A stretch of DNA of 58,764 nt from a virus (Duplodnaviria; Caudoviricetes): positions 1-58,764 of the IMG/VR virus record IMGVR_UViG_3300017754_002055. One strand, written 5' to 3'. The notes under the pieces are model-generated. The model saw only the letters and a program-made list of their open reading frames with translations. It had not been told where the DNA came from and made no database searches. Position numbers and translations under genes: made by a program. Shown here piece after piece: positions 3,122 to 57,743 of this stretch; position 1 is the first letter of the stretch, and each line of letters begins with the position of its first letter.

Positions 3122-4198
3122 ATGCAGGTTACGTTATTTAAAAGCATAAGAGAGACCGATACCCCATTCTTCAGAAGCGTACATGCGGTTTTGAATAGGG
3201 TAAAGGACGGTGCGACCAAGGAATTGGTGAAGAAGATTCGCTCAGAGAAGCGCAAGCCCGAGCGCAACGAGATAAAGAAGCAGCTCCCGGCTATTTGCTT
3301 CAGCGGTACATTCAGTAAGCGAGCAGACTCAGCTATCATGGAGCACTCGGGTTTGATATGCCTAGACTTTGATGGGTACACCAAACAGAAGGAGCTGCTA
3401 CAGGACAAGGAGAACTTTACCAAGAGTAAGTATGTGTTCTCTGTATTCATTTCCCCATCGGGCAATGGCCTCAAGGTTTTGGTTAAGATACCGGCAGACC
3501 CCGACAATCACGCAAACTATTTCAATTCTCTTGAGAAGCATTTCAACTCTCCCTATTTCGACAAGACGTCCAAGAATTTGAGCCGAGTTTGTTACGAGTC
3601 TTACGACCCACTCATTTACGTGAACGACAACTCATCAGTATGGGATGTTATTGAGGAGCCGGAGTATACCGAGGTAAGCAAAGTCAGAGACGCTCCTACC
3701 ATACCCATTACAGACGAGAACAAGATTGTGGAAATACTTGTGAAGTGGTGGACAAAGAAATACCCAATGATGGAGGGGCAGAGAAATCAAAATTGCTACA
3801 TACTAGCAATGGCCATGAACGACTTCGGAATCAACAAGAGCTTAGCTGAATATATACTCAAGCAATACTCTTCAGAAGACTTCAGCCTTCAAGAGATTGC
3901 AACGACTATAAACTCAGCGTATTCAAACACGGCAAACTTCGGTACGAAGTATTACGAAGACGAGGAGAGAATCAATCAAATCAAAGCCAAGCTCAGAAGA
4001 GGCGTGCCAAAAAAGGAGGTGCGTTCTCAACTTCAAGACTCAAACTTAGAGCATGATGTGATTGAGTCAGTGCTGAGCAAGGTAGAGGAAGAGAACGCTA
4101 AGCAAACGTTTTGGACCAAGAACGACAAGGGCGCTATCAAGATAGTCCATATCCTATTCAAGCAGTTCTTAGAAGACAATGGCTTCTACAAGTATTGC
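3122..4198 (+). CDS. Primase-helicase, N-terminal part (BT4734/VirE-N-like primase-polymerase domain plus PriCT-like region); frameshifted
   Basis: KKQLPAICFSG, HSGLICLDFD, FISPSGNGLKVLV, RVCYESYDP and EGQRNQ motifs; the reading continues in the -1 frame at 4198. Confidence 0.75.
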
Positions 4199-14600: not shown

Positions 14601-17600
14601 CAATACGTCCTCCGGTCTAGCGTCCTCCAAGAACATTGGCTGCCCTGTAATCTTTACTGCTATGCCATTGAACAAAGATTTTATCTCATCAAGGAGTGTC
14701 TTTGCCTTTGGAGTTAGATTGTCAGATGTAATTCCTGCTGCAGTAAGCAGCCCTCCAAGTTGAACAAGCCACTCCTCTGCTTGAACGTTCGATTGCTTAT
14801 ATGTTTCTGATTCTGAAAACTCATCAAGCTGATTTGCAATTTCATTGAATCCATTGTCGATAAGGGATTGTCTTACGCTATCTCTGAACTCATTAAACAA
14901 CGCTTGATTATCACCAAATGCCTTGATTAATATGGCATGCCAAGCCTCGTGCGGAAGAGTGGTAGCGTCAGATACTGAGTCGTTAATCAATATCTCAATA
15001 GGCTTGTTGTTCAAGTCATAGATAATCATACCTCCCTCGCCCCCGAGAATCTGACTTGAAAATGAAGCACCAAATCTCTGAATTGCGTAGTCCTTCATCT
15101 CCTGTAATGACTTAAGATTCTTAGTCTTCAAGTCGGGAAATATAGTAGTTAATGAGCGAACAGTATTGGCAAAAATCTCAGCCTTAGTTTTGCCCATTTT
15201 ATTAGCCTTCGAGCTAATGATTTCATTTTTAAAAGCCTTTGCCGTATCTCCGTAAATCGTTAACTTAAAAAGCTTGCCCCCTTCTTTCTTTCCAATAGGA
15301 AGTCCAAGAATTTTTTTTCTTTTATCACTCTGAACCTCCTCTGTAAACTCACGAAGAAATGGTGGTACTTGGTCTATAGAGTCTACCATAAACTCATAAG
15401 TCTCATCATCATTAAGTCCATCAAAAAAACTATCAGACATATCGACAATATTGCCGTTTACAGTTCCGAAAACTCGGCCCTGTCTTGGAGCTTGTTGTTG
15501 TGCTTGCTCTTGTGCTTGCTCTTGAATCTGACTTAATTCCTCATCAATCTGTGTCTTTAAAGACACTTCAACGGCATCAATAACACTTTGCTGTTGAGGT
15601 GTGCGGTCTTGCTCAGACAACTGAGATGCTGTATCATAAAGCTCAGCAAGCATCTTCTCGTTACCCATCACCGAGGTCTCAGTACCATCCTCTTGCTCGA
15701 AGGTGATTGCGGTGCGCTCTTCTGTCGGGAGTTGCTCTAACGCTGCTGTTACAGTCTCCGGACTAGACAACAAAGACGGTCTAGTGGCAGCAGTTTCTGT
15801 AGCTGCAGCGGACCTAGCCTTTTCATTTAGTGCATTTAATTCGTTTTGAGCGTCTTCAAAAGTAATAAGCTCTTCGCCAATTAATACCGATAAGGGGCCT
15901 ATGCCTTCGGGGGCGGTAGATATAGACCGCTCGACAGCCTGTTCAAGAGCAGCCCTTCTCTCTTCTTCCTCGTCTGTTAATATTTGTATTCTATTTCCCG
16001 GAGCTCCTGTAGCAGGCTCAGCGGCAGGCTCAGCGGCAGGACGATTTGATATTGCATCAAGCTCGTCATTGATGTCATTGATACGACTCTTCTGACGTCT
16101 CACTAGCGCCTCATCCTTGCCTTGTATTTGTTGCTCTAGGTCTTTCTTCTCCTTTAGCAAGTTCATTGCCTCCTTGGCGTCTTGAGTAGATAATCCCTCG
16201 GGCACAGAACGGTATAAGCCAACTGAGTTCCTGTAATTGTTCAGCGACTCCTTGGCTTCTGCCATTGTCATATCTCCGGTAGAAGCCAATTGCTTTAGCC
16301 TCACGACATAAGCTTTCTCTATCTCGCTATCATTAGCTGCTTTTCTGAAGAACTCAAACGCTTTGTCATCCATTGACAAGAATCCTTTCTTCGAGTAAGC
16401 AGCGGACACCGCTGATGGTACGCCCAAAACAAAACCACCGACAGCTTCTTGAGCTCCGGCAGTTGCAACATCTTTTATGTATTCAGCAGACAAGAAGTCG
16501 GGAGTTTGGAACATATCCTTTCCCTTCGCTGTGTTGTACATATCTTTTAAAGCATACTCAGAAACCTGTTGTAGAAATCCGGTCTCACCCTCAGCAAGAG
16601 CTGCTCCGCCCACGGTGATAAGACCACGAGCGACCATGCTGTTGACTTCATTTTTAACAAGCTCTCCAAATGTCTTCGCAGTGGTAGTGGCTCCTGCCTT
16701 TCCCATAGCACCTAGGATGATTCGGTTCATCAGACCTTTGTTGGCTATCACGTTCCTAAGACCTATTGACTCTAGGATTGCAGATGTAATTCCTATTGGA
16801 GCTACAACAGATAGCTTTTCACTCTCAGATATTTTGTCAAACTCAGGGTTATTTGACATCTCCTCGTACACGTGGTCTGTAACTTGAGAATACATTTGAG
16901 CGGTTCTCTGTGCCCATCCTATCGGGGTATTACTACCGACCATTGCCGGTAATGACTCTGCGACACCGAGTATAGCTCCTCCCCAAAATCCTTGTTTTTT
17001 TAGTTCAGCCCATTCTACAGTTGTGCTAGGGTCTCCCAATACAATCTCAGCCCCCGTTCTTATAGACGGGAGAAGATTTTTTTTAAATTCCTTTCTTAGG
17101 TCATCATTTGACTTTGCTCTAACAGAATCCTGTTGTTCGTCAGTCAAGCTATTATACCAATCCCTTACGGTTTGCCCGGCCTTGGGCATTGGTATGGGGT
17201 CGGGAGTCCCTATAGGGAGTACAAGAAATTTGTCACCTCTCTTTTTTGACTCTGCAACAGCCTCATTGTAATCTTCATTTATTCTGTAGGCATTAGATAC
17301 GGCAAGGTTCTTCAATTTTATGGTGTCCTCTGATGGAACTCCTGTCGCCTTTTCGTCGGTAAGAGTTTTCTCAACATCTTCGTCTGCACCTAATGGGCCG
17401 TATTCTGAAATAAAAGCATCAATATATGCGTTCACTTGTCCGGCTGCCATTCTTCCTATACCCGTCATGAACCTATCTAACAACCCTCCTGCCCAACCGC
17501 CTTGCTCCTCTTTCATAGCAGTGTATTGGCCGACAGCATATTCTAAGTTCTTTTTATTTAGCCTAACCTGCTCTTCCCGAGAAAGAAGCCCTTGTGCTTT

Positions 17601-18575
17601 TGCTTCTAGTGCCGCTTTCTTTTGAGAATAATCTGCAACTCTTTGCTTGTACTCGGGTGTGTTTCTATTAGCAAGGGGCACGGAATTAAGAGAAGACTCC
17701 TCGTCGTCTATCTTTTTCTTTTCTGACAAGAACATTGTGATGTCATTCTTGAGTGCTGTAGCATTATCGTCAAACGCTTTAAGCTCTGCATCTCTTTGCT
17801 CATCGTTGGCGATTCTCTTGCTCTTTTGTGCGTATTGTTTCTCTAAAGACTTAAGGCCCGACAAAGTAGTATCGGTATTATCGTCGATAAACTTACGCAG
17901 CTTTTTAGCCTCAGATTCAGCTCCAAAAAATGGGTCAAGAGAAAACTCCATCTTCTCTCCATTGGGGGCTGTGCCAATCATGTAGTCTCCCATCACTCCT
18001 GTTTTTTCAAACTTAAATCCAATTGGCCCAAATTGATAGTTCATTTTAGGCACAACAAATTCTTCAGTTGAATTTATTAGGTCGGGAGTTATAATATCTA
18101 GTGAAGACTTATAAGCCTCCGGAGTTGCTGCTTCTTTCTCGGCCCTTGTCTGCGCTATTTTAGCGAAGTCAATATTTGCATTTATACCTAGCTTCTCATT
18201 CTCAGTCTGAGGCTTGGGTATACCACTGAAATCAAACTTCTCCGGCTGTCGAGAAGCCAAAGAAGAATCTGCCGAAGACAATCCCGTAGTAACGGTTTCT
18301 TCTTTTTTTTTTAATTCCTGCTGAGCTTGCATCTGCGGCTGAGCTTGCATCTGCGGCTGAGCTTGCATCTGCGGCTGAGCTCCGGCTCCGCTAACACCCA
18401 TTAGGATTCTGAAAGCGTTAATGTCTTTTCTATATCCTGTATTAACAAAAAGATTATAAGCATCATTGAGAGCCTCGGGAGTAGTGGCCATCAACTGCTT
18501 AAAATCTTCGTAAGATTTTTTATACCCTGTGCCTACAAAAAGGTTGTAGGCGTCTTTGATTGCTTCTTCGTTCAT
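8697..18575 (-). CDS. Giant (3292 aa) internal virion/DNA-ejection protein, polyvalent type
   Basis: Last gene of the structural operon; largely helical; contains a zincin HEAWH motif and an LSPQ..W/NFY.NI/VT.DTHA/QVQSITW domain. Confidence 0.7.
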   Translation of the reverse strand: MNEEAIKDAYNLFVGTGYKKSYEDFKQLMATTPEALNDAYNLFVNTGYRKDINAFRILMGVSGAGAQPQMQAQPQMQAQPQMQAQQELKKKEETVTTGLSSADSSLASRQPEKFDFSGIPKPQTENEKLGINANIDFAKIAQTRAEKEAATPEAYKSSLDIITPDLINSTEEFVVPKMNYQFGPIGFKFEKTGVMGDYMIGTAPNGEKMEFSLDPFFGAESEAKKLRKFIDDNTDTTLSGLKSLEKQYAQKSKRIANDEQRDAELKAFDDNATALKNDITMFLSEKKKIDDEESSLNSVPLANRNTPEYKQRVADYSQKKAALEAKAQGLLSREEQVRLNKKNLEYAVGQYTAMKEEQGGWAGGLLDRFMTGIGRMAAGQVNAYIDAFISEYGPLGADEDVEKTLTDEKATGVPSEDTIKLKNLAVSNAYRINEDYNEAVAESKKRGDKFLVLPIGTPDPIPMPKAGQTVRDWYNSLTDEQQDSVRAKSNDDLRKEFKKNLLPSIRTGAEIVLGDPSTTVEWAELKKQGFWGGAILGVAESLPAMVGSNTPIGWAQRTAQMYSQVTDHVYEEMSNNPEFDKISESEKLSVVAPIGITSAILESIGLRNVIANKGLMNRIILGAMGKAGATTTAKTFGELVKNEVNSMVARGLITVGGAALAEGETGFLQQVSEYALKDMYNTAKGKDMFQTPDFLSAEYIKDVATAGAQEAVGGFVLGVPSAVSAAYSKKGFLSMDDKAFEFFRKAANDSEIEKAYVVRLKQLASTGDMTMAEAKESLNNYRNSVGLYRSVPEGLSTQDAKEAMNLLKEKKDLEQQIQGKDEALVRRQKSRINDINDELDAISNRPAAEPAAEPATGAPGNRIQILTDEEEERRAALEQAVERSISTAPEGIGPLSVLIGEELITFEDAQNELNALNEKARSAAATETAATRPSLLSSPETVTAALEQLPTEERTAITFEQEDGTETSVMGNEKMLAELYDTASQLSEQDRTPQQQSVIDAVEVSLKTQIDEELSQIQEQAQEQAQQQAPRQGRVFGTVNGNIVDMSDSFFDGLNDDETYEFMVDSIDQVPPFLREFTEEVQSDKRKKILGLPIGKKEGGKLFKLTIYGDTAKAFKNEIISSKANKMGKTKAEIFANTVRSLTTIFPDLKTKNLKSLQEMKDYAIQRFGASFSSQILGGEGGMIIYDLNNKPIEILINDSVSDATTLPHEAWHAILIKAFGDNQALFNEFRDSVRQSLIDNGFNEIANQLDEFSESETYKQSNVQAEEWLVQLGGLLTAAGITSDNLTPKAKTLLDEIKSLFNGIAVKITGQPMFLEDARPEDVLEFMVTISERMSKGQDISMFFRDVEQQQASNPNRTSFQKPKAGVATLQETTPKTSSLKDIDVKLVRTLSRAGSRVSKGLAIYTRNKRKIVEEAPELSLAYVKENAPEIFISNANLIAQYPIVRGVKAFNEIKTIEQAQEVYDIFSRQIADNLEYLIDNFRQDLREIATLWYDGANILAQNFGKKYGITTEQAAGIIASLSPQKDWYQNVRLAEMVMMAFKDNPVMSQEMVDYQRGIINIGLEGKQKKVNKAKAAYKKSRSKANANKLKKLIAKYDSAVKKSDIVLQNLTGLIGTKMNDAPNYAKPYYARTYNEVNTTKDYDILSPDGKVIGIAKKKDGSNAQVAWGSYTEIGKAVAIYLDGSQENITRTLGEMHKIRNFYNNIIDPMSPDKDVTMDTHAVAAALLLPLSGNSKQVEANFGTGTSNSDPLGIKGLYYAFAEGYNLAAEETGLLPRQVQSITWEAVRGLFTDDFKRDKKKVEAINQIVENYVNKKITLDESRNQITEYAGGIKTPSWAGGPLQEGTTDNVEGETVGRRSRGTKSDTVGAERGGARVSRQTPQGGGTLQEVQKVAKRYNMNNNGFSPAQVNEFAMSRELNVFGYSAKRAKPDANGRPGGVYILDPNGKFFNPFKAKFSRINLGAGNLQENVDTIPGYARMLDIANGIIEKSIKRGLDKAKTMDNVMKYVTRSKVYEIANDSQREQLVRNVETEFGKRQKSAPSVERDVFMGLGRLVLGDIADIKRITMSEKELLKKQIRDLARGARQSKIAFMKAEAELAKQIKELVLPGKIKTKQVASIIRRFAAVNVFNQDSVDKFVDYMINVFEDAEYDQKIETARKKLKTAKVNIKTKIGIAESAGPLLTKLFSINPNLIPDSVLDKYLALVDSFGENAAVLKLEEANKVVSTVNEILDAVNEEESLVEELAILFDNYEDKVIDEDGKIDFAETLIKMLEEGEITEAEVKLMKKYKSLIIPRVEKAKMTEQEIEEEKRKLISAIRGLDINAENLPTRDERNLAKELKELLVPSLLNQLSISQLENVIKLIDNINNGYLPSYAELTVERLDSFKKSEPLIESIKTGVALKFEKAYARIKKFLTRSKNSSDFVMVERGPLYNMEQLFGDFKTKNIFNSVFAGLAKGQAFFDSEMNTINKTLDKARQKVASSYKNNANNTLFSSYRMMAYMLQLEYQNNPDSKQVHNVAKVIQSTIKRIDEGNSKYGEREIGWLESILTNFGVVVGQDKNGKDIIEIDAKKLYDSFNSAEKEAIDIIQKTNESLREKAVYTASVIRGDRITPLNNYVHHYVMHEYSADENATGTQTADEYNNSMRPSTRAKSLEERKNTVSPLNFDLFASAQRGAKFVLLDYSMTKAIRTARKTLAATKAKLEKNGRIPKEEREIFNAINSAFNEVVKNVLTNNFITNSIGDEVVQFISKTGYRAILASIPRFISELTSNFGTVIFDPDSFAKGVSLYRKISTLEAQEIMKNSKSVQANRLYGGQALSGKFIDSSVLRQTTGIVSGSAKSDVLNVVNTIYNNSLKKYKNFVELTADTLISTPDRAVMRPYWFGVYSNSFKEQTGKEIDVKKVAENDEAYMNQYKAEIEKAADAADRMSVRVGATDNPFMGILKGTIKPGQSALTRGFNNFNNFMTRFAIYEYTTAREGVYAAMGNGLITRKQGLALLAGVATRMTVYTLLTNVLGSTMLSMFADDDEDDEKTFMQKFGQSLASTMTGLILGRNFGNATKTLVNYGVEEANEEFLTALREGEYDPYKDYISYSIIPQEKKGQKTDLNDFITQMGGSFGPALKTLELTVRKVFEAPKKEEEAIERDKKESQIRIPLEVLGNLGMVPLYKDIRKIVMSNMYKDLENADKKAADKKQAEKEMLQGYENKTEMKRYDPELYEETFGEKSPGYDEQQAKKEIKKQMDDLEQKMKDEFYNYVPSKKDKPSFGSKKFGAPKETKKKTTKGFGSKKFGE
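15551..15566. repeat. 16-bp palindrome GTGTCTTTAAAGACAC inside the giant CDS
   Basis: Direct read; encodes VSLKT. Confidence 0.95.
18321..18381 (-). repeat. 18-bp tandem repeat (about 3.4 copies) encoding QPQMQA
   Basis: CTGAGCTTGCATCTGCGG x3 plus a partial copy. Confidence 0.9.
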
Positions 18576-30921: not shown

Positions 30922-30950
30922 TTTGATTCAAATAGATTTGATTTAACAAT

Positions 30951-30986
30951 AAAAGAAAAAGAGGAGTGTCTTTGAAGACACCCCTC
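30951..30986 (-). terminator. Capsid-gene terminator built on the 16-bp palindrome (30966-30981)
   Basis: Minus strand GAGGG-GTGTCTTCAAAGACAC-TCCTC-TTTTTCTTTT directly after the capsid stop. Confidence 0.8.
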
Positions 30987-49419: not shown

Positions 49420-49438
49420 TTGATTGGATTATTTGAGA

Positions 49439-49446
49439 CAAATATA
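49439..49446 (-). promoter_or_regulatory. Bacteroidota-type -7 element TATATTTG for groEL
   Basis: CAAATATA on the + strand, 19 nt upstream of the groEL ATG. Confidence 0.6.
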
Positions 49447-49525
49447 GTTAGTATTTATGAAAACCAAACATAAAAATTACTCTCGTTTAATTATGGATTA
49501 ATAAAGGTTCAATCCTTTAGATTAT

Positions 49526-49655
49526 TGTCAGAATGTCAATTTCTTCTCCCCTATTATATATATATATTTCCTCCTTTATATATCTTTTTTTTTAATATAG
49601 ATTCTCTTTTTAATTGACATAATCGACATAAAATTAATAATCAATAAGTTAAGTT
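49526..49655. other. AT-rich origin-like element, copy B
   Basis: TGTCAGAATGTCAAT, CCCCTAT, (TA)n, pyrimidine/T-run, AATTGACATAATCGACATA; paralogous to 2957-3095. Confidence 0.45.
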
Positions 49656-49699
49656 ACATAATTAGAAACATTCTCATGTCGAAAAAATACATAATGGAT

Positions 49700-49733
49700 A
49701 AAAAGAAAGAGGGGCCCGTTATAGACCCCTCTC
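49700..49733 (-). terminator. Intrinsic terminator
   Basis: Minus strand AGAGGGGTC-TATAACG-GGCCCCTCT-TTCTTTTT. Confidence 0.7.
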
Positions 49734-49778
49734 TTGAGTTGGTGAATTGCATTACCGTAAACTAACCAAAACTCAATA

Positions 49779-49940
49779 CTACTTCTTTGAAGCGACAGAC
49801 CAAATGCTTCCAACCAAAGTCATAACAGCTCCAATAATGTCAGCAGTTACAGACTCAGCAAGAATACCATTGGCAATCAAGATACCACCTACAAACGTAA
49901 GTGCGTGGCGAATCAGTCCTAGAACTTGTTCTGTTTTCAT
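49779..49940 (-). CDS. Small two-TM membrane protein (holin-like)
   Basis: MKTEQVLGLIRHALTFVGGIL..G...IIGAVMTLVG.IWS. Confidence 0.6.
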   Translation of the reverse strand: MKTEQVLGLIRHALTFVGGILIANGILAESVTADIIGAVMTLVGSIWSVASKK

Positions 49941-49963
49941 TGTAAAAAATATTAGGGGGTTAA

Positions 49964-50212
49964 TTAATCGCAACAGTCCATTCCGCGCATCATCTCATTC
50001 ATCTCACTCATTCGTTCTCCTCTAACATAAGCCTCAGCCTGCATGTTAATCTTCTTTTCAATCTTCATTTGACGACGAGCATTAGCAGCTTGTACAATTC
50101 CCATCTCAGAATTAGGACGGTCATTAATCAATCGTCCATCACGTACAGTAAGACCCGGGCCTCCTCCGTTGTATCCGGATTGGTAGACGCTATTTGAAAG
50201 TTTAAGTTTCAT
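49964..50212 (-). CDS. Hypothetical protein; first minus-strand gene
   Basis: Preceded by TACATTTG at 50237-50244 on the minus strand. Confidence 0.6.
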   Translation of the reverse strand: MKLKLSNSVYQSGYNGGGPGLTVRDGRLINDRPNSEMGIVQAANARRQMKIEKKINMQAEAYVRGERMSEMNEMMRGMDCCD

Positions 50213-50435
50213 AATGTATTGTTTTTATGTGTAATACAAATGTAGGCAAATTTTTAGAACGAGATACATAGGGTGTTGGGGTAATACCACGTCGCACGCG
50301 AGCCGGGCCCCTACCGAAAGCGACCTGCTCCAAAGGGGTGGGGGGTGCAATTCGCCGCCGCCCGTCTAACTTTTTGCCGTTTTTCCTGTGGGCCATTGCC
50401 GCCGCCGCCCTGTAGCACAACAGCGCCGCCGCCGC

Positions 50436-50485
50436 CCTGTTACCTGTTACCTGTTTGCCCTGTCACCTGTCACCTGTCACCTGTT
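50436..50485 (+). repeat. Heptamer tandem array CCTGT(T/C)A, about 7 copies, next to (GCC)n runs
   Basis: CCTGTTA CCTGTTA CCTGTTT GC CCTGTCA CCTGTCA CCTGTCA CCTGTT. Confidence 0.85.
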
Positions 50486-50520
50486 CGCCGCCCATTCGCG
50501 GCCCGTTGGCCCTGTTTATT

Positions 50521-50536
50521 GTGTCTTCAAAGACAC
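50521..50536. repeat. 16-bp palindrome GTGTCTTCAAAGACAC
   Basis: Direct read; in the divergent intergenic region. Confidence 0.95.
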
Positions 50537-50708
50537 TTCGTACAAAGTTCGTCTAAAATTCGTCTACTGATCGTAGAACGTTCGTCTAATAGCAGCCCCA
50601 CCACAAGTACACCCCACAAACTGAAATATTTTTCACCTCTACAGGCCGCACCAAATAAGGCCTTCAAAAAAAAATGAATAAAAACGCAAACTTTTTTTTC
50701 CCTAGGTA

Positions 50709-50738
50709 TTGATTTGAACGAAATTTGAACTATATTTG
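50709..50738 (+). promoter_or_regulatory. Early promoter 1
   Basis: TTGA...TATATTTG (50731-50738) upstream of the first early gene. Confidence 0.7.
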
Positions 50739-50798
50739 TACCGCCAATGAACGAAACAACGGCACAAAATAACATAAACAATTCAAAATCAACAAGTT

Positions 50799-51475: not shown

Positions 51476-52384
51476 ATGAGCACAGGAATAGTATACACAG
51501 TAACAGGAAACCAAGAACGCGGACAGGTAACACTTTACCACCACAAACCGTATCCGCTTTTCTTGAACAAGACAAAGTACCGTATTGACGTTGCAGGCCT
51601 CAAACCTGTAACAGCACGTGAGGCCCTAAAAATAAACGGAGACTCAATTGAGTCGCGTTTTACGGTAGGCTTTGAGGTTGAGAAAAACCAATTGCACAGG
51701 GGCGCCGTTCGTGAGTATGAGCTGTTCTGTGGTTTCGAGCGCGACAGTTCATGCGGCTACGAGGCTGTCACGCATATTTTGCCGCTGTTGCCGTCGGGCC
51801 TGTGGCGCACAAAAGTGTATGACATGATGTACAAGGCCGAGCGCATAATCGATGACCGCTACAGCCCGTCAAACAGAAATTGTGGAGGCCACATTACACT
51901 AGGCTGCGACGGTTTCACAGGTGATGACCTACGTGAGGCCGTGAGAAAAAACGCGGGTATTGTTTTGGCCCTGTTTCGCAACCGTTTGTCAAATCAATAC
52001 TGTAACCGTAACTTGACCATGTTAAGCAGCTCAGACTCACATATGCATGCAAACGGGTACCACTTCAAGTATCAATTGGCCTTGGTAAAAGGTGATTGCC
52101 TAGAGTTTAGATTGCCGTCAAGGTTTGAGAGTGTTAAGCAAATGATGAGACGTTACGAGCTGTTCTACGAGCTAGTTAACTACAGCGTGAATAAGCCTAA
52201 CGGCACGTTCAAGGCCTTTCTCAAGCATATAACGCCGCTGATAGTGTCCATGTACAATGGCGACGCTGCAAAGGCCGGTAAGGTCATCGAACTAGCAGAA
52301 AGGTTTCAAAAGTTCATCAATACCGGCGAATGGACCGACGAGGTTAGGGCCTACGTGAGCGGCAACACAAGCGGCCTCCTGTAA
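51476..52384 (+). CDS. Putative amidoligase (COOH-NH2 ligase type 2)
   Basis: GFEVE, D.S..E.VT, CGGHI and LEFRLP motifs; ATG start at 51476. Confidence 0.7.
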   Translation: MSTGIVYTVTGNQERGQVTLYHHKPYPLFLNKTKYRIDVAGLKPVTAREALKINGDSIESRFTVGFEVEKNQLHRGAVREYELFCGFERDSSCGYEAVTHILPLLPSGLWRTKVYDMMYKAERIIDDRYSPSNRNCGGHITLGCDGFTGDDLREAVRKNAGIVLALFRNRLSNQYCNRNLTMLSSSDSHMHANGYHFKYQLALVKGDCLEFRLPSRFESVKQMMRRYELFYELVNYSVNKPNGTFKAFLKHITPLIVSMYNGDAAKAGKVIELAERFQKFINTGEWTDEVRAYVSGNTSGLL

Positions 52385-52393
52385 AGGCCTCAT

Positions 52394-52423
52394 GCGAGGG
52401 GTGTCTTCAAAGACACTCTTCGC
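52394..52423 (+). repeat. Hairpin containing the 16-bp palindrome (52401-52416)
   Basis: GCGAGGG-GTGTCTTCAAAGACAC-TCTTCGC. Confidence 0.9.
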
Positions 52424-52426
52424 TTC

Positions 52427-52475
52427 CTGTAACAGGGTGAGTGCCCTGTCTGATGAGCTCAAAAGAGCGAAACAG
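52427..52475 (+). ncRNA. Hammerhead ribozyme HHR1 (type III)
   Basis: CUGUA^ ACAGGG-UGAGUG-CCCUGU CUGAUGA GCUC-AAAA-GAGC GAA ACAG; full core; predicted cut after 52431. Confidence 0.93.
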
Positions 52476-52507
52476 TAACCACAAAACATAATCAAAATCA
52501 AAAAGCT

Positions 52508-52702
52508 ATGTTCTACATTGGCAAAACTTACAAGCATGGTCAACACCAAATGACCCGCGAATTTTCAACCGAGTATTCAGCTCTCAATTGGATTGACGCA
52601 AACTCCCGTCACTATGGATTGCACGTTAGTGAAGACGGTTACAGCGCCTCTTCAGAGGATGACCTCGGGTGGTATTTCGAGATAGAGGAGTGCGAATACT
52701 AA
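52508..52702 (+). CDS. Hypothetical early protein
   Basis: AAATC-rich leader directly after HHR1. Confidence 0.65.
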   Translation: MFYIGKTYKHGQHQMTREFSTEYSALNWIDANSRHYGLHVSEDGYSASSEDDLGWYFEIEECEY

Positions 52703-52717
52703 GCCCTAGTTCGGGCC

Positions 52718-52751
52718 GTGTCTTCAAAGACACACTTCGCCTCCTGTAACA
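52718..52751 (+). repeat. 16-bp palindrome (52718-52733) plus truncated ribozyme-cassette remnant
   Basis: GTGTCTTCAAAGACAC-ACTTCGCCTCCTGTAACA matches the HHR1 cassette to just past the cleavage site, then diverges. Confidence 0.8.
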
Positions 52752-52783
52752 ACAACAATCAGAAACAAATCAAATCAAATCAC

Positions 52784-52915
52784 ATGCGTAAATTAATTAT
52801 CTTCATCATTGCAGCGGCTGTTCTTGCTTCATGTTCTAACAGCGCGAAACTAAGCCATTCACATTACACGAAAGGCATGACCAAAGGTCAAGACGGGTGC
52901 GCTTGGCACAAGTAA
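52784..52915 (+). CDS. Small lipoprotein
   Basis: MRKLIIFIIAAAVLAS-C: basic N-terminus, hydrophobic core and lipobox. Confidence 0.65.
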   Translation: MRKLIIFIIAAAVLASCSNSAKLSHSHYTKGMTKGQDGCAWHK

Positions 52916-52965
52916 GGTTAACTGACGAGTCTTGACTAGACGAAACGCCGTGAGGCGTCTTAACC
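52916..52965 (+). ncRNA. Hammerhead ribozyme HHR2 (type I)
   Basis: GGUUAA CUGACGA GUCU-UGACU-AGAC GAA ACGCC-GUGA-GGCGU C^ UUAACC; predicted cut after 52959. Confidence 0.92.
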
Positions 52966-52981
52966 AAATAAATAATTTATC

Positions 52982-53158
52982 ATGACAACTTACTTCATTT
53001 GCAACACTGACAGCTACGGCCAAAGAACAGGCAGCTATAGCTCTATTCAACTAAGCGAAGGCGATATCAAGATTGATAGCCACGGTAACAAGCTCACACA
53101 GGGCGGCACATTTCTTTACGAGAGCGAGCTAGAAATCATGCGAGCGTGTCAAGGTTAA
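52982..53158 (+). CDS. Hypothetical early protein (58 aa, not in ORF track)
   Basis: MTTYFICNTDSYGQRTG...; bracketed by HHR2 and HHR3; its stop TAA is part of HHR3 stem I. Confidence 0.65.
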   Translation: MTTYFICNTDSYGQRTGSYSSIQLSEGDIKIDSHGNKLTQGGTFLYESELEIMRACQG

Positions 53159-53202
53159 CTGATGAGCCGTTATTCGACGAAACGCCGTGAGGCGTCTTAA
53201 CC
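53153..53202 (+). ncRNA. Hammerhead ribozyme HHR3 (type I)
   Basis: GGUUAA CUGAUGA GCCG-UUAUU-CGAC GAA ACGCC-GUGA-GGCGU C^ UUAACC; one C-A mismatch in stem II; predicted cut after 53196. Confidence 0.87.
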
Positions 53203-53219
53203 ATCATAAACAATTTACC

Positions 53220-53594
53220 ATGAGTACAACAACCCGCGCAATTGGACAGCGCAAATCATTAACGAGAGCCTCAGAGGCAGTGCCATTCAAGACTAACAGA
53301 CTAGAGGTATCTAGACTAGTCAAGGCGCAAACCGACGCGATAACAAGCGGCGTGTGGGATTTCCCAATGGACTACAAATTCGCCAACAGCGGCCAAGTTT
53401 GGGACGCCGTGAACGAGGGCAAGAGCGTGCAAATGTTCGTGCGTCAGTGCATGATTGAGTTCGGCACAATTACAGGAGCTCTTCTAGGTAGTCAGTTCAA
53501 CCACGTATCGCATAGCAGCAAACAAGCAATTCGCAAGGGCGTCATGAGAGCACAGCAATACAAGCAAATTATTGACCAACTAAAACAGAAATGA
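53220..53594 (+). CDS. Hypothetical early protein
   Basis: ATG start MSTTTRA just after HHR3. Confidence 0.65.
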   Translation: MSTTTRAIGQRKSLTRASEAVPFKTNRLEVSRLVKAQTDAITSGVWDFPMDYKFANSGQVWDAVNEGKSVQMFVRQCMIEFGTITGALLGSQFNHVSHSSKQAIRKGVMRAQQYKQIIDQLKQK

Positions 53595-53767
53595 TGACCA
53601 CAAAAATCAAACAGTTCGCAGCGGCGTGCGTGCTAATTGCACTACTTGTCATTGGCAGTTCACTTGACAAGCAAACACAGCTGACTGAGTGCGTACAAAA
53701 CAGCGACGGAACGGACGCACAGTGCGAAGAGTGCTACAAAAAAGTATACGGCGAGTACCCTAAATAA
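53591..53767 (+). CDS. Small membrane-anchored/secreted protein (58 aa, not in ORF track)
   Basis: ATGA overlap; hydrophobic N-terminal segment, Cys-rich C-terminus. Confidence 0.55.
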   Translation: MMTTKIKQFAAACVLIALLVIGSSLDKQTQLTECVQNSDGTDAQCEECYKKVYGEYPK

Positions 53768-53837
53768 TTTAGGGGCCGTAACACGCTGAGAGACAACAGA
53801 TTAACGAGGGTTGAGCTGGAATTGTTAATAACTTTTA

Positions 53838-53880
53838 TTGACTTCGTTCAATTCTCGTTGTATCTTTGTCGAAAATTCGT
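53838..53880 (+). promoter_or_regulatory. Early promoter 2
   Basis: TTGACTTCGTTCAATTCT....GTATCTTTGTCGAAAATT; near-identical to 56008-56050. Confidence 0.8.
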
Positions 53881-53931
53881 ACAAATAAATATAAAACTTA
53901 ATTAGGGGTGCGCCTATAACGCACAAACATC

Positions 53932-54243
53932 ATGAAACAATACAGACACATTGAAGGTAACAACCATTTGAAGATTGAAGTTTACTACAACAAAGGTGGC
54001 ATGAATTATTTTTCGGGAAACACAGACAAGCGCGGGTATTGGCTCAGCATTATAAGGGTAGAGCGAGAGCAAAGCCCCATGGGATACACAACCGAGAGCT
54101 TTACGGTGTTCGGTGGTGGTAACCGTCGCATGTTCTTGCATGAGGTCAAGAGACAAAGCGACAAAGCCTATACTCAAGCGGTGGAGATAGCTAAAGGAAA
54201 GATTGACGAGCTATGCGAGGTGGTTCTTGCAGGGTCGAGATAA
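53932..54243 (+). CDS. Hypothetical early protein
   Basis: YYNKGGMNYFSG...RGYWLS; follows promoter 2. Confidence 0.7.
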   Translation: MKQYRHIEGNNHLKIEVYYNKGGMNYFSGNTDKRGYWLSIIRVEREQSPMGYTTESFTVFGGGNRRMFLHEVKRQSDKAYTQAVEIAKGKIDELCEVVLAGSR

Positions 54244-54302
54244 GAGATAAAAGAGACGCGAGGTGGTAACTCGTTGTTGTGTATGTGTTTTAGCAAAACA
54301 GT

Positions 54303-54326
54303 GGCGGTGTCTTCAAAGACACTGCC
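54303..54326 (+). repeat. Hairpin containing the 16-bp palindrome (54307-54322)
   Basis: GGCG-GTGTCTTCAAAGACAC-TGCC. Confidence 0.9.
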
Positions 54327-54380
54327 TCCTGTCTCAAGGTGTGCACCTTGACTGACGAGCTCCGAAAGGACGAAACAGGA
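54327..54380 (+). ncRNA. Hammerhead ribozyme HHR4 (type III)
   Basis: UCCUGUC^ UCAAGG-UGUGCA-CCUUGA CUGACGA G(C)UCC-GAAA-GGAC GAA ACAGGA; predicted cut after 54333. Confidence 0.9.
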
Positions 54381-54401
54381 AACTAAAAAATTAAAAACAA
54401 C

Positions 54402-54587
54402 ATGGCAAAGTGTATTCTATTTTTCTACATCATTGTCGGCAAGGTTGAGCGAAGCGACAACCTGTACACCATTCATACCGACGGCAAAACCTACGAGCAT
54501 GCATGCGAGGGCGAGACTCTCAATTGGATTGTGACGGGTGAGTTTATTTACGACGACTTCAAATGCGAGTGTAACGAAATCAATTAA
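54402..54587 (+). CDS. Hypothetical early protein
   Basis: A-rich leader after HHR4. Confidence 0.6.
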   Translation: MAKCILFFYIIVGKVERSDNLYTIHTDGKTYEHACEGETLNWIVTGEFIYDDFKCECNEIN

Positions 54588-54590
54588 AAC

Positions 54591-54920
54591 ATGAGGTACG
54601 CAAAACTAATTTCTAACAACGAGGCTACAATTGTCACTGAAGACGGTGGAGTAGCTACTGTACATCACAACGGACAAAACCTAGTCACCACCTACTATCA
54701 ATTGAGGGCCGAGCAGTTCGACGACGACATGTGGGACATGCTCCAAGAGGGTAAGCAATACCTAAAAGATTGGAGGCACAAACAAGAGGTTGACGAGGAG
54801 ACAATTCATGCAGCGCTAGAGTGGCTGTGTCCAACTGAGCGCAATTGGGTCGAGGAGGACTACTACCTGTTTACCACAGAGTTTAATCACCAACAAAATA
54901 AACGGAGGGAAAACCTATGA
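54591..54920 (+). CDS. Hypothetical early protein
   Basis: Operon packing. Confidence 0.6.
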   Translation: MRYAKLISNNEATIVTEDGGVATVHHNGQNLVTTYYQLRAEQFDDDMWDMLQEGKQYLKDWRHKQEVDEETIHAALEWLCPTERNWVEEDYYLFTTEFNHQQNKRRENL

Positions 54921-55201
54921 TGCATGCAACCAAGCTTAAAAAAGCGGGCGGTATACTTGAGATACGCCACAACGACGAGGGCGACGCAGTGTACGTTTTT
55001 ATCAAGAGAAAAAAGGCTAGGGTATTTCCTTCATTAGAGGGGCTAATATCAAGCGTATACTTCGGAGTGGACTCAGAGCATTTCACTTGTCAAGACAGCG
55101 AACTATTCGAGCTGTATGAGGGCGGAGACTATGAGTACAAGAAGCTACGAAACAGAAAAGAAAATCCCGAAAATCCAAACCAATTAAAGTTATGGCAGTA
55201 G
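54917..55201 (+). CDS. Hypothetical early protein
   Basis: ATGA overlap. Confidence 0.6.
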   Translation: MMHATKLKKAGGILEIRHNDEGDAVYVFIKRKKARVFPSLEGLISSVYFGVDSEHFTCQDSELFELYEGGDYEYKKLRNRKENPENPNQLKLWQ

Positions 55202-55434
55202 AACAATTAGCAGCAGAGCTCGAGCTCGAGGGCAAGTATGGGTACTTTGAGTACATCATGGAGAGCGTGTCCAATGGACAGAACAAACAGGCAAGAGAAC
55301 TATACGAGGAGCTCACAATTACTGAGGCGACTGAGTTCTTCGAGTGGGTCGAGGCTAGTTACCATTACGAGGCGGACAGCGACAAGGTTCGCGGCCTTGA
55401 GATGGAGCACCTAAGACTCAAGCTAAGCAGATGA
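55192..55434 (+). CDS. Hypothetical acidic early protein
   Basis: YFEYIMES..NGQ.KQARELY. Confidence 0.6.
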   Translation: MAVEQLAAELELEGKYGYFEYIMESVSNGQNKQARELYEELTITEATEFFEWVEASYHYEADSDKVRGLEMEHLRLKLSR

Positions 55435-55440
55435 ACAAAA

Positions 55441-55466
55441 GCGGAGTGTCTTCAAAGACACTTCGC
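55441..55466 (+). repeat. Hairpin containing the 16-bp palindrome (55446-55461)
   Basis: GCGGA-GTGTCTTCAAAGACAC-TTCGC. Confidence 0.9.
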
Positions 55467-55515
55467 CTGTAGCACGGTGTGCGCCGTGCCTGACGATACC
55501 AAAAGGTTGAAACAG
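55467..55515 (+). ncRNA. Hammerhead ribozyme HHR5 (type III, variant stem II)
   Basis: CUGUA^ GCACGG-UGUGCG-CCGUGC CUGACGA UACC-AAAA-GGUU GAA ACAG; U-U in place of the usual G-C at the base of stem II; predicted cut after 55471. Confidence 0.8.
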
Positions 55516-55536
55516 AAACTAAAAAAACAATTACAC

Positions 55537-55809
55537 ATGGTAAAAAGCACAATGAAATTTATCATTGAAGACAGGGACGGGGAGCTATTCTTTGTCGCGT
55601 CTACAGCGGGCGGCAAGGTATATGAGGCCCATATATCCGACCAAGAGGTTGACATATTCGACTGCATTGAGACGTTCATGAGCGAATACAACAACCTGTT
55701 CAGAGGCAAGAGCAAAGCAAAGACCGACGCATACCACAGAGTGGCGCCGCTGAATAGCACACTGCCGCCTATAGAGAAAATCAAATGGACATCAACAACA
55801 ACAGACTAA
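55537..55809 (+). CDS. Hypothetical early protein
   Basis: ATG start MVKSTMKF after HHR5; the track's GTG start lies inside the ribozyme. Confidence 0.6.
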   Translation: MVKSTMKFIIEDRDGELFFVASTAGGKVYEAHISDQEVDIFDCIETFMSEYNNLFRGKSKAKTDAYHRVAPLNSTLPPIEKIKWTSTTTD

Positions 55810-55810
55810 C

Positions 55811-55963
55811 ATGAGCAACAACATCACACGAGCAAGTCAATTCAACCTTTCAAGGTGCATTTACTTTTGGACAGAACAAACACTCACCAACTGCAAAGAC
55901 AAGGGAGGCTCATTCAACTTAGAGCTATACTTGAGATACTTAGATGCAATACGAAGGTCTTGA
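55811..55963 (+). CDS. Small hypothetical protein (50 aa, not in ORF track)
   Basis: MSNNITRASQF..GGSFNLELY..YLDAI; starts 1 nt after the upstream stop. Confidence 0.5.
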   Translation: MSNNITRASQFNLSRCIYFWTEQTLTNCKDKGGSFNLELYLRYLDAIRRS

Positions 55964-56007
55964 GCTTATTAAGAATCATTATAAGTAAAAAAAAGTTACA
56001 ATAAAAC

Positions 56008-56050
56008 TTGACTTCGTTCAATTCTTGTCGTACCTTTGTCGAAAATTAGT
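56008..56050 (+). promoter_or_regulatory. Early promoter 3
   Basis: TTGACTTCGTTCAATTCT....GTACCTTTGTCGAAAATT; near-identical to 53838-53880. Confidence 0.8.
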
Positions 56051-56106
56051 TTAATTCATCAGAGTTCTGTGTCTATTTAGATGCTGCTCGCAAATCAAAT
56101 CAAATT

Positions 56107-57219
56107 ATGTGCGTCATAATCATCAAACAAAAAGGAATGCAACTTGCCAAAGGAGTGCTAAAAAGTTCAGCCCGTATCAATCCCCATGGACTAGGCGTAG
56201 TGTGGCTTGACACTTTCCAAGTAGAGTATTATGACTCTAAGAAGTACGCGGTGCTGCAGACCGAGCGTCCATTTATAGCACACTTCAGATACGCAACAGT
56301 AGGCGCAATCAACCAAGAGAACACGCACCCATTTACGTGCGGTAAAAATAAAAGTGAGTGGCTCATGATGAACGGGACCATTGCAGGACTAGGCAACAAA
56401 GTCAATTCAGATACCAAGGTATTGGCTGAGAAGCTAGGCGACACGCCTCGTCATACATGGAAAGAACAGCTAGAGAAGTATGAGTGCCGCTTTGTTACAA
56501 TCAACACACGCAACAGGACGTTTCAAGTATACAACCAAGACCTGTGGATACAACGTGACGGTGTGTGGTATTCAAAAGACAACGTGCTAGAAGACCATTT
56601 GGTGGCCGTGTACGGGACACTCAAGAAGGGCAACTCCAACTACTACAACTACCTTACAGGTTCTAAGTACATAGGCAAGGGACATACCAAGGACAAGTAC
56701 CCATTAATAATTGAGGGACTGCCGTACTTAATTGAGAAGAAGGGTGTGGGTTATAACGTGGAGGTGGACGTATTCAAAGTGAGCGACTCAAGACTCAAGG
56801 ACCTAGATAGATTAGAGGGACATCCTAATTGGTACTGTAGAAAGCAAGTGGACATCAAGACAAGCAAGCGCACACTAACATGTTGGGTGTACTTTAACTT
56901 GAGAGAGTTATCCGAGGGCAAGACTTTCCATGAGACCTATACCCAAGAGCAAAGGAAATTTGACAAGTGGTGGGAACAGCCTAAGTTACACACACCAATC
57001 AAGGCGACAAGCGACAAGGCTGTGAAGACAGGGTTCAAGAAGCTAGAGCTGTTCGACGACTACTATGACCATCATGTGAGCGACTCAGACTTTGACGTGA
57101 CAAACGAGAAGCCTATGTGTATCTGTTGTTATCACGACTTAGAGCATGACGGGCACTCTAACTACCATTGCAGTGGGTGTGGTGGGTGGTTCAGTGAGAG
57201 CGAGATTATTGTAGCATAA
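56107..57219 (+). CDS. Class II glutamine amidotransferase fused to gamma-glutamylcyclotransferase (AIG2-like) with a C-terminal Zn ribbon
   Basis: Ntn Cys2 (MC), HFRYAT.G, HPF, NGTI and SDT; then VAVYGTLKKG and LDRLEGHP; CxxC..CxxC tail. Confidence 0.85.
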   Translation: MCVIIIKQKGMQLAKGVLKSSARINPHGLGVVWLDTFQVEYYDSKKYAVLQTERPFIAHFRYATVGAINQENTHPFTCGKNKSEWLMMNGTIAGLGNKVNSDTKVLAEKLGDTPRHTWKEQLEKYECRFVTINTRNRTFQVYNQDLWIQRDGVWYSKDNVLEDHLVAVYGTLKKGNSNYYNYLTGSKYIGKGHTKDKYPLIIEGLPYLIEKKGVGYNVEVDVFKVSDSRLKDLDRLEGHPNWYCRKQVDIKTSKRTLTCWVYFNLRELSEGKTFHETYTQEQRKFDKWWEQPKLHTPIKATSDKAVKTGFKKLELFDDYYDHHVSDSDFDVTNEKPMCICCYHDLEHDGHSNYHCSGCGGWFSESEIIVA

Positions 57220-57232
57220 TCAACCTTTAAGT

Positions 57233-57256
57233 GGCGGTGTCTTCAAAGACACTGCC
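57233..57256 (+). repeat. Hairpin containing the 16-bp palindrome (57237-57252)
   Basis: GGCG-GTGTCTTCAAAGACAC-TGCC; identical to the 54303 copy. Confidence 0.9.
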
Positions 57257-57308
57257 TCCGTCTTAGGGTGTGTGCCCTAACTGAAGAGCGCCGAAAGGAC
57301 GAAACGGA
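57257..57308 (+). ncRNA. Hammerhead ribozyme HHR6 (type III)
   Basis: UCCGUC^ UUAGGG-UGUGUG-CCCUAA CUGAAGA GCGCC-GAAA-GGAC GAA ACGGA; imperfect stem II; predicted cut after 57262. Confidence 0.85.
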
Positions 57309-57335
57309 ATTAAATCAAATCAAATCAAAATCACA

Positions 57336-57743
57336 ATGAGACAAAGAGCCTCAGTAACAGAAAAGAAGTATGCGGCATTTATAAATGACTGCTACGAACA
57401 AAAGACTTTTGACCTACGACAGCTGCTGCAAAAGCACAGGGTTGACGGTTCGCTTATTAGCACCCTATCTTCAATGGACCTTGTTGTGTCGGTAAGAAGC
57501 GGAGTGTATAATTGGGTCGGGGACTTTCCTCTGACACCTAATAGCATTGAGCTTATCATATACAGGCACAGAGAGAGGGCCAAGGCGTACCGATTAAAGA
57601 GAGAAGAGAAGGTTATACTTAGGCGTGTGGGTCCTGTAGCTCCGGGACATCAAGAGCCTACCATCACAGAGCAGCAAGCTGTTGACTTTCTAAAGTCCAT
57701 TGGCGGCTACGAGATTTATAAAGTAGAACGAAAACAAGTCTAA
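57336..57743 (+). CDS. Hypothetical early protein
   Basis: (AAATC)n leader directly after HHR6. Confidence 0.65.
   Translation: MRQRASVTEKKYAAFINDCYEQKTFDLRQLLQKHRVDGSLISTLSSMDLVVSVRSGVYNWVGDFPLTPNSIELIIYRHRERAKAYRLKREEKVILRRVGPVAPGHQEPTITEQQAVDFLKSIGGYEIYKVERKQV

Follow-up and report, generated by a model that had tools for sequence, protein, structure and literature searches.

Prophages have been described in which several hammerhead ribozymes lie close together, on the flanks of a single gene or of a short run of genes (Perreault et al., 2011, PLoS Comput Biol, PMC3088659). The role proposed for these clusters, in the sections of that paper devoted to them, is to divide long phage transcripts into shorter messenger RNAs (mRNAs), and three of the tandem arrangements were reported to cleave in vitro and one in E. 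coli (Perreault et al., 2011). The same sections mention the hammerhead of the haloviruses HF1/HF2, situated 13 nt upstream of the start codon of an early gene, where the 5′ end of a transcript was mapped close to the cut (PMC3088659). A review from 2019 repeats, in its relevant part, the processing hypothesis and regards most bacterial and phage hammerheads as functional orphans (PMC6765202). Self-processing of mRNA by phage hammerheads is, then, a plausible published hypothesis and not a new one; a search of the open-access literature for "hammerhead" together with "Flavobacterium phage" found no paper. The window analyzed here is the whole of the IMG/VR virus record IMGVR_UViG_3300017754_002055 (Duplodnaviria; Caudoviricetes), a single contig of 58,764 bp, which carries six hammerhead ribozyme motifs, four of them joined to a conserved RNA hairpin. 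What is new here is this hairpin–ribozyme composite and its likeness to a terminator in which the U-run has been swapped for a ribozyme.

The six elements, labeled HH-A to HH-F, were found within 4.9 kb, all on the + strand and all at boundaries of open reading frames (ORFs), which is the clustered phage arrangement of Perreault et al. (2011). Four are of type III, namely, HH-A (52427–52475, predicted cut 52431/52432), HH-D (54327–54380, cut 54333/54334), HH-E (55467–55515, cut 55471/55472), and HH-F (57257–57308, cut 57262/57263), and two are of type I, HH-B (52916–52965, cut 52959/52960) and HH-C (53153–53202, cut 53196/53197). Reading of the sequence confirmed these positions, which had been given in a preliminary description of this DNA, and the stem I pairs and loops quoted there (UGNGYR loop I and RAAA loop II) were correct. 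A start codon follows each element soon, as had also been remarked, with 33, 17, 18, 22, 22, and 28 nt between the 3′ end and the next ATG from HH-A to HH-F. The core sequences CUGANGA, GAAA, and UH are present in all six elements, as are the helices. The core is invariant in the four type III copies (C3-U4-G5-A6-N7-G8-A9, G12-A13-A14, the A15.1-U16.1 pair, and an H17 that is not G), in which the core is surrounded by three helices, stems I and II each ending in a loop while stem III stays open; HH-A shows the full consensus core with a stem III of just 4 bp. In both type I copies the core also follows the consensus, stem I being the open helix and stems II and III the closed ones. The core sequence, the architecture, and the covariation seen in relatives identify the motifs as hammerheads. 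All of them sit on the coding strand at gene boundaries, which suits intercistronic self-processing, and the reading favored here, held with moderate confidence, is that the six elements would act as functional hammerheads in polycistronic + strand transcripts, cutting the cistrons apart and leaving hairpin-capped 3′ ends.

Scanning of both strands of the whole window with the Rfam models at E ≤ 10 gave three hammerhead matches, all on the + strand in the 52.4–57.3 kb region and none elsewhere, corresponding to HH-A (RF00008, 37.5 bits, E 1.6e-4), HH-D (35.1 bits, E 7.8e-4), and HH-B (RF00163, 25.8 bits, E 0.054). A scan limited to the region added 57255–57310, i.e., HH-F (25.3 bits, E 0.04). 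Our own strict descriptor recovered five of the six on the + strand (HH-A, HH-B, HH-C, HH-D, and HH-E) and nothing on the − strand or elsewhere. A looser descriptor found four matches in the real sequence vs. a mean of 0.37 per simulated genome (both strands, 100 Markov simulations), the simulations reaching a maximum of four matches and giving at least one in 30 of 100 cases. When the type III copies and their relatives were used to train a covariance model, it reported nothing above 15 bits in the window beyond the four training copies. Taken together, the Rfam, descriptor, Markov simulation, and covariance-model scans establish that the cluster is not a product of chance. The preliminary description had seen no hammerhead in the replication or late modules and had named equally good matches scattered on both strands as evidence that would speak against it; the scans were empty elsewhere on both strands, and none gave a comparable match on the − strand.

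For the covariation analysis, IMG/VR was scanned for the hairpin core described below, which yielded 162 loci, and a descriptor picked 14 distinct type III hammerheads from them. In the resulting alignment (18 rows, four from the window and 14 from relatives, with two duplicate rows that differed just in the choice of GAAA removed), 95.6% of the cells were paired and a compensatory change was seen in 13 of 15 pairs, the pairing being inflated in stems I and III since the rows had been preselected by descriptors requiring these stems to pair. All six stem I pairs covaried and were 100% paired, and stem II, which was not preselected, was 90% paired with three of its four pairs covarying. The columns of the catalytic core did not vary in this alignment. 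The covariation score was reached by none of 500 shuffles, and controls with slid partners were 35–46% paired. For type I, the stem III motif was found at not less than 126 viral loci, of which 50 were type I by our own rule and the rest mostly type II. Twenty rows were aligned, consisting of the two window copies and the 18 of 38 unique relatives that were exactly 50 nt long. Here, 99.7% of the cells were paired, with five of six stem I pairs and three of four stem II pairs covarying; stem III is uninformative on covariation as it was fixed by the search pattern, and stem II was again not preselected. The sole unpaired cell was the C.A of HH-C.

Several observations weigh against the reading of the six elements as functional self-processing ribozymes, the preselection of the alignment rows being one. 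None of the copies reached the Rfam gathering thresholds in the window, the type III copies scoring 37.5, 35.1, and 25.3 bits vs. a cut-off of 48.5 and the type I copy 25.8 vs. 34. HH-E was unreported in both the whole-window and the region-only scan, and over HH-C the region-only scan gave a misregistered type III match (53143–53188, 18.1 bits). In the Infernal scan proposed in the preliminary description, all hammerhead matches at E ≤ 10 fell in the cluster on the + strand, and none attained a gathering score. Related type III loci are also under the cut-off (13 matches in 12 loci, 34.1–47.6 bits vs. 48.5), so that this phage hammerhead subfamily is missed by routine annotation. The copies also carry defects: a C.A mismatch in stem II of HH-C, a bulged C in stem II of HH-D, a bulged C plus a G.A in stem II of HH-F, and a U.U at 10.1–11.1 beside the core of HH-E. 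A U.U at this position would fail the rules of the 2011 survey as its methods passages give them (PMC3088659). The other three type III copies (HH-A, HH-D, and HH-F) have a Watson–Crick pair there. The open stem III of the type III copies measures just 4–6 bp. The minimum free energy (MFE) fold is the hammerhead for HH-B, HH-D, and HH-F, is close to it for HH-A and HH-E, and is a different fold for HH-C.

The distribution among relatives adds to these points. In the survey of related phages that had been called for, placement before an ATG recurred in many lineages, and occurrence was sporadic. No hammerhead was found in the nearest GenBank relative, the uncultured podovirus record MW202828.1 (77% terminase identity), or in the Cellulophaga phage phi38:1, and the Cellulophaga phage phi18:3 had no convincing type III element and one weak type I-like motif (18.9 bits). 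Such sporadic presence suggests that the hammerheads are dispensable. The Flavobacterium phage elemoF has one type III element, which scores 40.7 bits with our own model, stands 15 nt ahead of an ATG, and shows no obvious hairpin, and a 61-kb viral contig that holds 13 hairpin copies has one type III match. The hairpin 16-mer is absent from the four GenBank phages checked (elemoF, phi18:3, MW202828.1, and phi38:1). The elements of the cultured phages elemoF (locus L293, NC_055853.1 17867–17919, − strand, type III) and phi18:3 (L299, NC_021794.1 21916–21958, − strand, type I-like), each just upstream of a start codon, are unannotated candidates.

The stem defects noted above raise the question of whether the motifs might be inactive or near-inactive relics of duplicated cassettes with no present role. 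Stem II is defective in three of the six and a mismatch adjoins the core in one; a seventh unit (at 52718, described below) has clearly lost its ribozyme, and the closest relative lacks the elements. Against this stand the conserved core positions, intact in all six, and the stems, which differ among the copies and yet stay paired, so that we consider relics very unlikely. A non-canonical 10.1–11.1 pair (U.U or A.A) recurs in six of the 18 members of the type III alignment, i.e., HH-E (window positions 55493/55505, alignment columns 32/44) and loci L073, L117, L120, L121, and L149. This recurrence argues for tolerance, and the pair may be a tolerated or a deliberately slower variant.

A stable RNA hairpin with the core GTGTCTTCAAAGACAC was found to precede all four type III copies. 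It was overlooked in the preliminary description and is the most informative clue to the mechanism. Hairpin A spans 52394–52423 (core 52401–52416, extension GCGAGGG/TCTTCGC with two G.U pairs, a 13-bp stem in the MFE fold) and ends 3 nt before stem III of HH-A. Hairpins D (54303–54326, core 54307–54322, extension GGCG/TGCC), E (55441–55466, core 55446–55461, extension GCGGA/TTCGC), and F (57233–57256, core 57237–57252, extension GGCG/TGCC) directly abut stem III of the respective ribozyme, the gap being 0 nt; all four are on the + strand. The underlying palindromic 16-mer, GTGTCTT(CA/TG/TA)AAGACAC, occurs at 13 sites in the genome (2501, 7061, 15551, 30966, 38069, 48743, 50521, 51443, 52401, 52718, 54307, 55446, and 57237; 16 nt each) vs. 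0.07 expected, and at the four hammerhead sites its stem is longer by 4–7 pairs. The four hammerhead-linked hairpins have no U-run and hence do not correspond to intrinsic terminators by definition, and no convincing + strand intrinsic terminator was found within 52.4–57.3 kb. The copy at 30947–30986 (core 30966, − strand), which reads GAGGG-core-TCCTC and then TTTTTCTTTT and has a virion-protein gene on either side, looks like the intrinsic-terminator form. The seventh unit of the region, identified by repeat analysis at 52711–52751 (+ strand), consists of the core (52718–52733) plus CTTCGCCTCCTGTAAC; the unit shares 82% identity with the upstream half of unit A and keeps CCTGTAAC, the ribozyme body being gone, and it looks like a decayed module. 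A pseudoknot between loop I and the 3′ arm of the hairpin was considered and rejected, as by eye it fits unit A alone and not D, E, or F.

The hairpin family was analyzed as a set of 165 unique copies from the window and the 162 IMG/VR loci, comprising 17 hammerhead-linked copies (one of which, L103, is false by eye), 33 followed by a U-run (a few false by eye), and 115 with neither. In the hammerhead- and U-run-linked copies, the stem extends by 4.2–4.4 bp if G.U pairs are allowed vs. 1.8 bp if A.C pairs are allowed, with G.U:A.C counts of 16:6 and 24:3, respectively; the 115 other copies have no stem extension (0.66 bp). Since G.U pairs work just in the sense strand, the hairpin linked to a hammerhead or a U-run is best understood as an RNA structure that is transcribed along with the upstream gene. 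This bears on the possibility that the conserved hairpin is a promoter, such as one of the DNA-hairpin type used by an RNA polymerase that the phage carries, with the type III hammerhead trimming an 8–12 nt triphosphate leader to give 5′-OH mRNAs. The 16-nt core is invariant at the 13 sites and at 162 or more viral loci, suggesting sequence-specific recognition by a protein; several copies stand ∼20 nt ahead of an ATG with no extended stem, and the phage encodes a giant protein of virion type with 3292 aa. Promoters of the N4-type virion RNA polymerase, which is phage encoded, are template-strand hairpins with a short stem and a 3-nt loop, with transcription starting ∼11 nt downstream; the palindrome of the present hairpin has an even length. 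A promoter is nevertheless unlikely, as the hairpin itself would be transcribed, the hairpin plus U-run resembles a terminator, other lineages change the hairpin sequence yet keep the structure and the 0-nt spacing, and intragenic copies lie in both orientations. The giant protein (ORF 8697–18575, − strand) matched only DUF7178 (Pfam) and PHROGs of unknown function, showed no sequence match to any solved structure (PDB), and fell in no detected polymerase family; on these grounds, an N4-like phage with this protein as virion RNA polymerase was dropped.

As the first set of relatives had been gathered by the hairpin core (the hairpin lies directly ahead of 12 of those 14 type III hammerheads), a second set was collected by the ribozyme core and stem II pattern alone to avoid circularity, giving 50 loci with 44 unique ribozymes. 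Of the 44, 29 had a hairpin that measured 7 bp or more, folded at −8 kcal/mol or lower, and ended no more than 3 nt from stem III, vs. 523 of 7830 control windows (6.7%) tiled over this genome. Among the ribozymes lacking the 16-mer, 23 of 36 still had a qualifying hairpin; its sequence differs among lineages, the apex GUGUC…GACAC being kept in many. With both sets pooled, a hairpin accompanied 42 of 56 unique type III ribozymes, and 37 of these 42 ended exactly at the first stem III pair (0 nt), a figure to be read with the upstream segment having been folded alone, so that a hairpin overlapping stem III would also seem to end at 0. The printed folds of the independent set show complete and symmetric stems. 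The abutting hairpin would place the cut 5–8 nt past the hairpin.

These data also bear on whether the ribozymes might be insulators in mobile small-gene cassettes, the cut freeing the downstream leader, which has no Shine–Dalgarno sequence, from upstream structure or ribosomes for the benefit of downstream translation. Every element ends 17–33 nt ahead of an ATG with an A-rich leader, the same placement before the ATG is seen in relatives of many lineages, and the copy number varies strongly among related phages. The genes after HH-A and HH-D are weakly similar (a 25-residue match, E 0.003, in a single comparison), making their paralogy suggestive at best, and Perreault et al. (2011; PMC3088659) state that the genes flanked by hammerheads are not constant. 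Insulation leaves unexplained, however, why the upstream hairpin abuts stem III in 37 of 42 cases; it largely overlaps with self-processing and does not exclude it. As the main function, insulation is rather doubtful.

In the favored reading of cleavage between cistrons, the host polymerase would transcribe the RNA from promoters of the Bacteroidota type near 50731, 53861, and 56031, each putative transcription unit containing one to three hammerheads. As the RNA emerges, the hairpin would form, followed by the ribozyme, and the strand would be cut after H17. At the type III sites, the hairpin may stack on the adjoining short open stem III (4–6 bp) and help to close it. The cleaved upstream mRNA would then end in the hairpin and a 5–8 nt tail with a 2′,3′-cyclic phosphate, like a terminated transcript, with transcription going on. 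Hairpin-ended RNAs in general resist 3′ exonucleases, and the hairpin-capped upstream end would do likewise. The downstream mRNA of a type III site would begin with a 5′-OH followed by the ribozyme body, a 20–33 nt A-rich leader, and the ATG. For type I, the upstream mRNA would be capped at its 3′ end by the stem III hairpin of the ribozyme itself, and the downstream mRNA would begin with a short unstructured leader. The net outcome would be separated cistrons with end structures that set their individual stability and translation. In type I and type II hammerheads, a closed stem III lies just before the cut; type III alone has no built-in upstream hairpin, and type III alone has one added. 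This is the best argument that selection favors a hairpin-capped 3′ end. The self-processing early-mRNA system put forward in the preliminary description is upheld as regards genuine hammerheads placed at gene boundaries, whereas its "early" part draws on gene content alone and the idea itself was published in 2011. Cleavage in vivo, polycistronic transcription, the stabilizing effect, and early timing are what we infer from these features; no RNA run was found for 52300–57400, the runs matching this segment being DNA contig runs.

More tentatively, and as a proposal that we rate below an even chance, the hairpin and the type III hammerhead may constitute a composite "cleave instead of terminate" RNA module that is widespread in phages of the Bacteroidota type and whose apex binds a phage factor. 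In such a module, a terminator-style stem-loop would lie coaxially on stem III, and the ribozyme would make the 3′ end otherwise made by a U-run. The invariant GUGUC…GACAC apex, which is kept inside the genes for terminase, helicase, and chaperonin as well, would serve as the putative binding site for a phage factor reading all sites. The genome offers a compact case, with six copies in two topologies in the putative operons of a small phage, and it suggests a concrete function, namely, 3′-end formation without termination, in which type III ribozymes replace the U-run behind a terminator-type hairpin; stacking of the hairpin on stem III is offered as a structural hypothesis.

The 16-mer was also observed within genes, at the terminase N-terminus and in the SNF2 helicase, GroEL, and the 3292-aa ORF, at places that are kept in many divergent viral contigs though the flanking codons vary; the 61-kb viral contig mentioned above likewise carries 13 copies. 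In cellular genomes, the 16-mer was present at no fewer than 128 loci, nearly all of them single copies in unrelated taxa, our own estimate of the chance expectation being ∼280 in 596 billion bases. A host repeat was ruled out, as the cellular copies are nearly all single, as expected by chance. Two cellular contigs had multiple copies, one from a Cytophagales and one from a Flavobacteriaceae metagenome-assembled genome, and both are probably phage contigs. No paper on the 16-mer was found in the open-access literature.

The type I copies HH-B and HH-C form a direct repeat at a distance of 237 nt; their identity over 53 nt is 89%, and stems I and III are the same in both. This raises the possibility that they excise 52960–53196, the ends being rejoined by the ribozyme or an RtcB-type ligase to give a circular RNA or a spliced transcript minus a 58-aa ORF. 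The resulting ends would be 5′-OH and cyclic phosphate, and excision was raised for clustered hammerheads by Perreault et al. (2011; PMC3088659), whose account also relates that products of this kind were sought and none found. Neighboring type I pairs in other contigs (L193/L194 and L224/L225) differ in stem I, and GGUUAA is a common stem I in the subgroup (seven of 38 unique relatives), so that the identity need not be meaningful; excision is accordingly judged highly improbable. In the stretch 52913–52921, the GGUUAA stem I of HH-B begins directly after the upstream stop codon, and the upstream stop codon of HH-C (53156–53158) falls inside stem I (stretch 53153–53158). The TAA within this stem I is, or directly follows, the upstream stop codon, as is also the case at loci L169, L214, L246, L251, L260, and L268. 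Terminating ribosomes would occupy the ribozyme at such sites, making translation-coupled control of cleavage conceivable for the type I copies. The stem III hairpin CGCC-GUGA-GGCG (loci L164–L288) is common to type I and type II hammerheads, and the phages that have it differ clearly in leader type, some leaders having a Shine–Dalgarno sequence and others lacking one; this half of the ribozyme seems to be exchanged widely.

The genome encodes a tailed-phage gene set, with a large terminase, portal, virion proteins, GroEL- and GroES-like genes, a Sak-like annealing protein, primase, and SNF2 helicase. In addition to the similarity to MW202828.1, the terminase shares 45% identity with that of Flavobacterium phages (genus Elemovirus) and 38% with that of Cellulophaga phages. 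The leaders ahead of the start codons are A-rich without a Shine–Dalgarno sequence, which fits a Bacteroidota host. The hammerheads are located at 50.8–58.7 kb, among small ORFs without assigned function that form a + strand block, which runs on into + strand replication genes at 0.7–7.3 kb; judged solely by gene content, the small-gene region is probably the early region. A blastn comparison of this region with GenBank phages gave no match, the region not being conserved at the DNA level.

A 43-nt repeat containing TTGACT and a TAnnTTTG box is present in just two copies in the genome, and these are likely the promoters of two small-gene units. The first (53838–53880, + strand), which contains TAtcTTTG, is the candidate start of a unit holding HH-D and HH-E, and the second (56008–56050, + strand, 91% identical) is that of a unit holding HH-F. 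A further TAnnTTTG is found at 50731. We take TAnnTTTG in the repeats and at 50731 to be the Bacteroidota promoter consensus; with 31 and 42 occurrences on the two strands genome-wide, it proved too common to define transcription units and serves as a hint alone. Between the divergent gene blocks, the ∼1.4 kb at 49420–50798 contain no long ORF, and they hold CGCCGCCGCCC-type repeats (50353–50463) and TTCGTCTAA-like iterons (50538–50589) beside a hairpin copy, making the segment a candidate origin or control region. Elsewhere, two overlapping + strand ORFs (3122–4273 and 4111–5538) match the first and second halves of phrog_28855 (804 positions, primase/helicase-like), by which the gene is predicted to be split, frameshifted, or recoded. 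At 2105–2201, Rfam called a transfer RNA (tRNA) that contains an insert of 40 nt, with a score of 37.2 bits that exceeds the cut-off, and ARAGORN found no tRNA in the window.

Compared with the clusters described by Perreault et al. (2011), the present one similarly brings mixed hammerhead types close together on the coding strand, flanking single or short blocks of unrelated genes. It differs in the number of elements, six in 5 kb of the genome of a lytic-type Bacteroidota podophage, where the passages of that paper on clusters describe triple arrangements; in the conserved hairpin upstream of the type III copies, which those passages do not mention; and in that cleavage in vitro was reported there, the elements here being predicted from sequence. 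The "HHphage" hammerhead of HF1/HF2, as portrayed in the same source, likewise precedes, by a few nucleotides, the start codon that opens an early polycistronic unit in a lytic virus; it is a single-copy, salt-dependent element with a variant core in an archaeal virus, in contrast to the consensus cores and multiple copies of this phage (PMC3088659). With the Rfam families RF00008 and RF00163, the elements share the catalytic core, the three-helix junction, and the open-stem topologies, and they differ in that the phage subfamily lies systematically just under the curated cut-off, with the window copies at 25–37.5 bits.

In phage T7, the early polycistronic mRNA is cut by host RNase III within a double-stranded hairpin, leaving 5′-phosphate and 3′-OH ends. 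The proposed processing resembles it in that intercistronic cuts leave a hairpin on the upstream 3′ end and transcription goes on; it differs in that the RNA would cut itself 5–8 nt past the hairpin, leaving 5′-OH and 2′,3′-cyclic phosphate ends. Like intrinsic terminators, the type III sites present a G+C-rich hairpin followed by a pyrimidine-rich stretch, and the same core takes the terminator-like form at 30947–30986 (− strand) and in 33 of the 165 unique copies of the family, a few of these 33 being false by eye. Unlike in intrinsic terminators, the 5′ strand of stem III takes the place of the U-run, and cleavage, not release of the polymerase, would be expected to generate the 3′ end.

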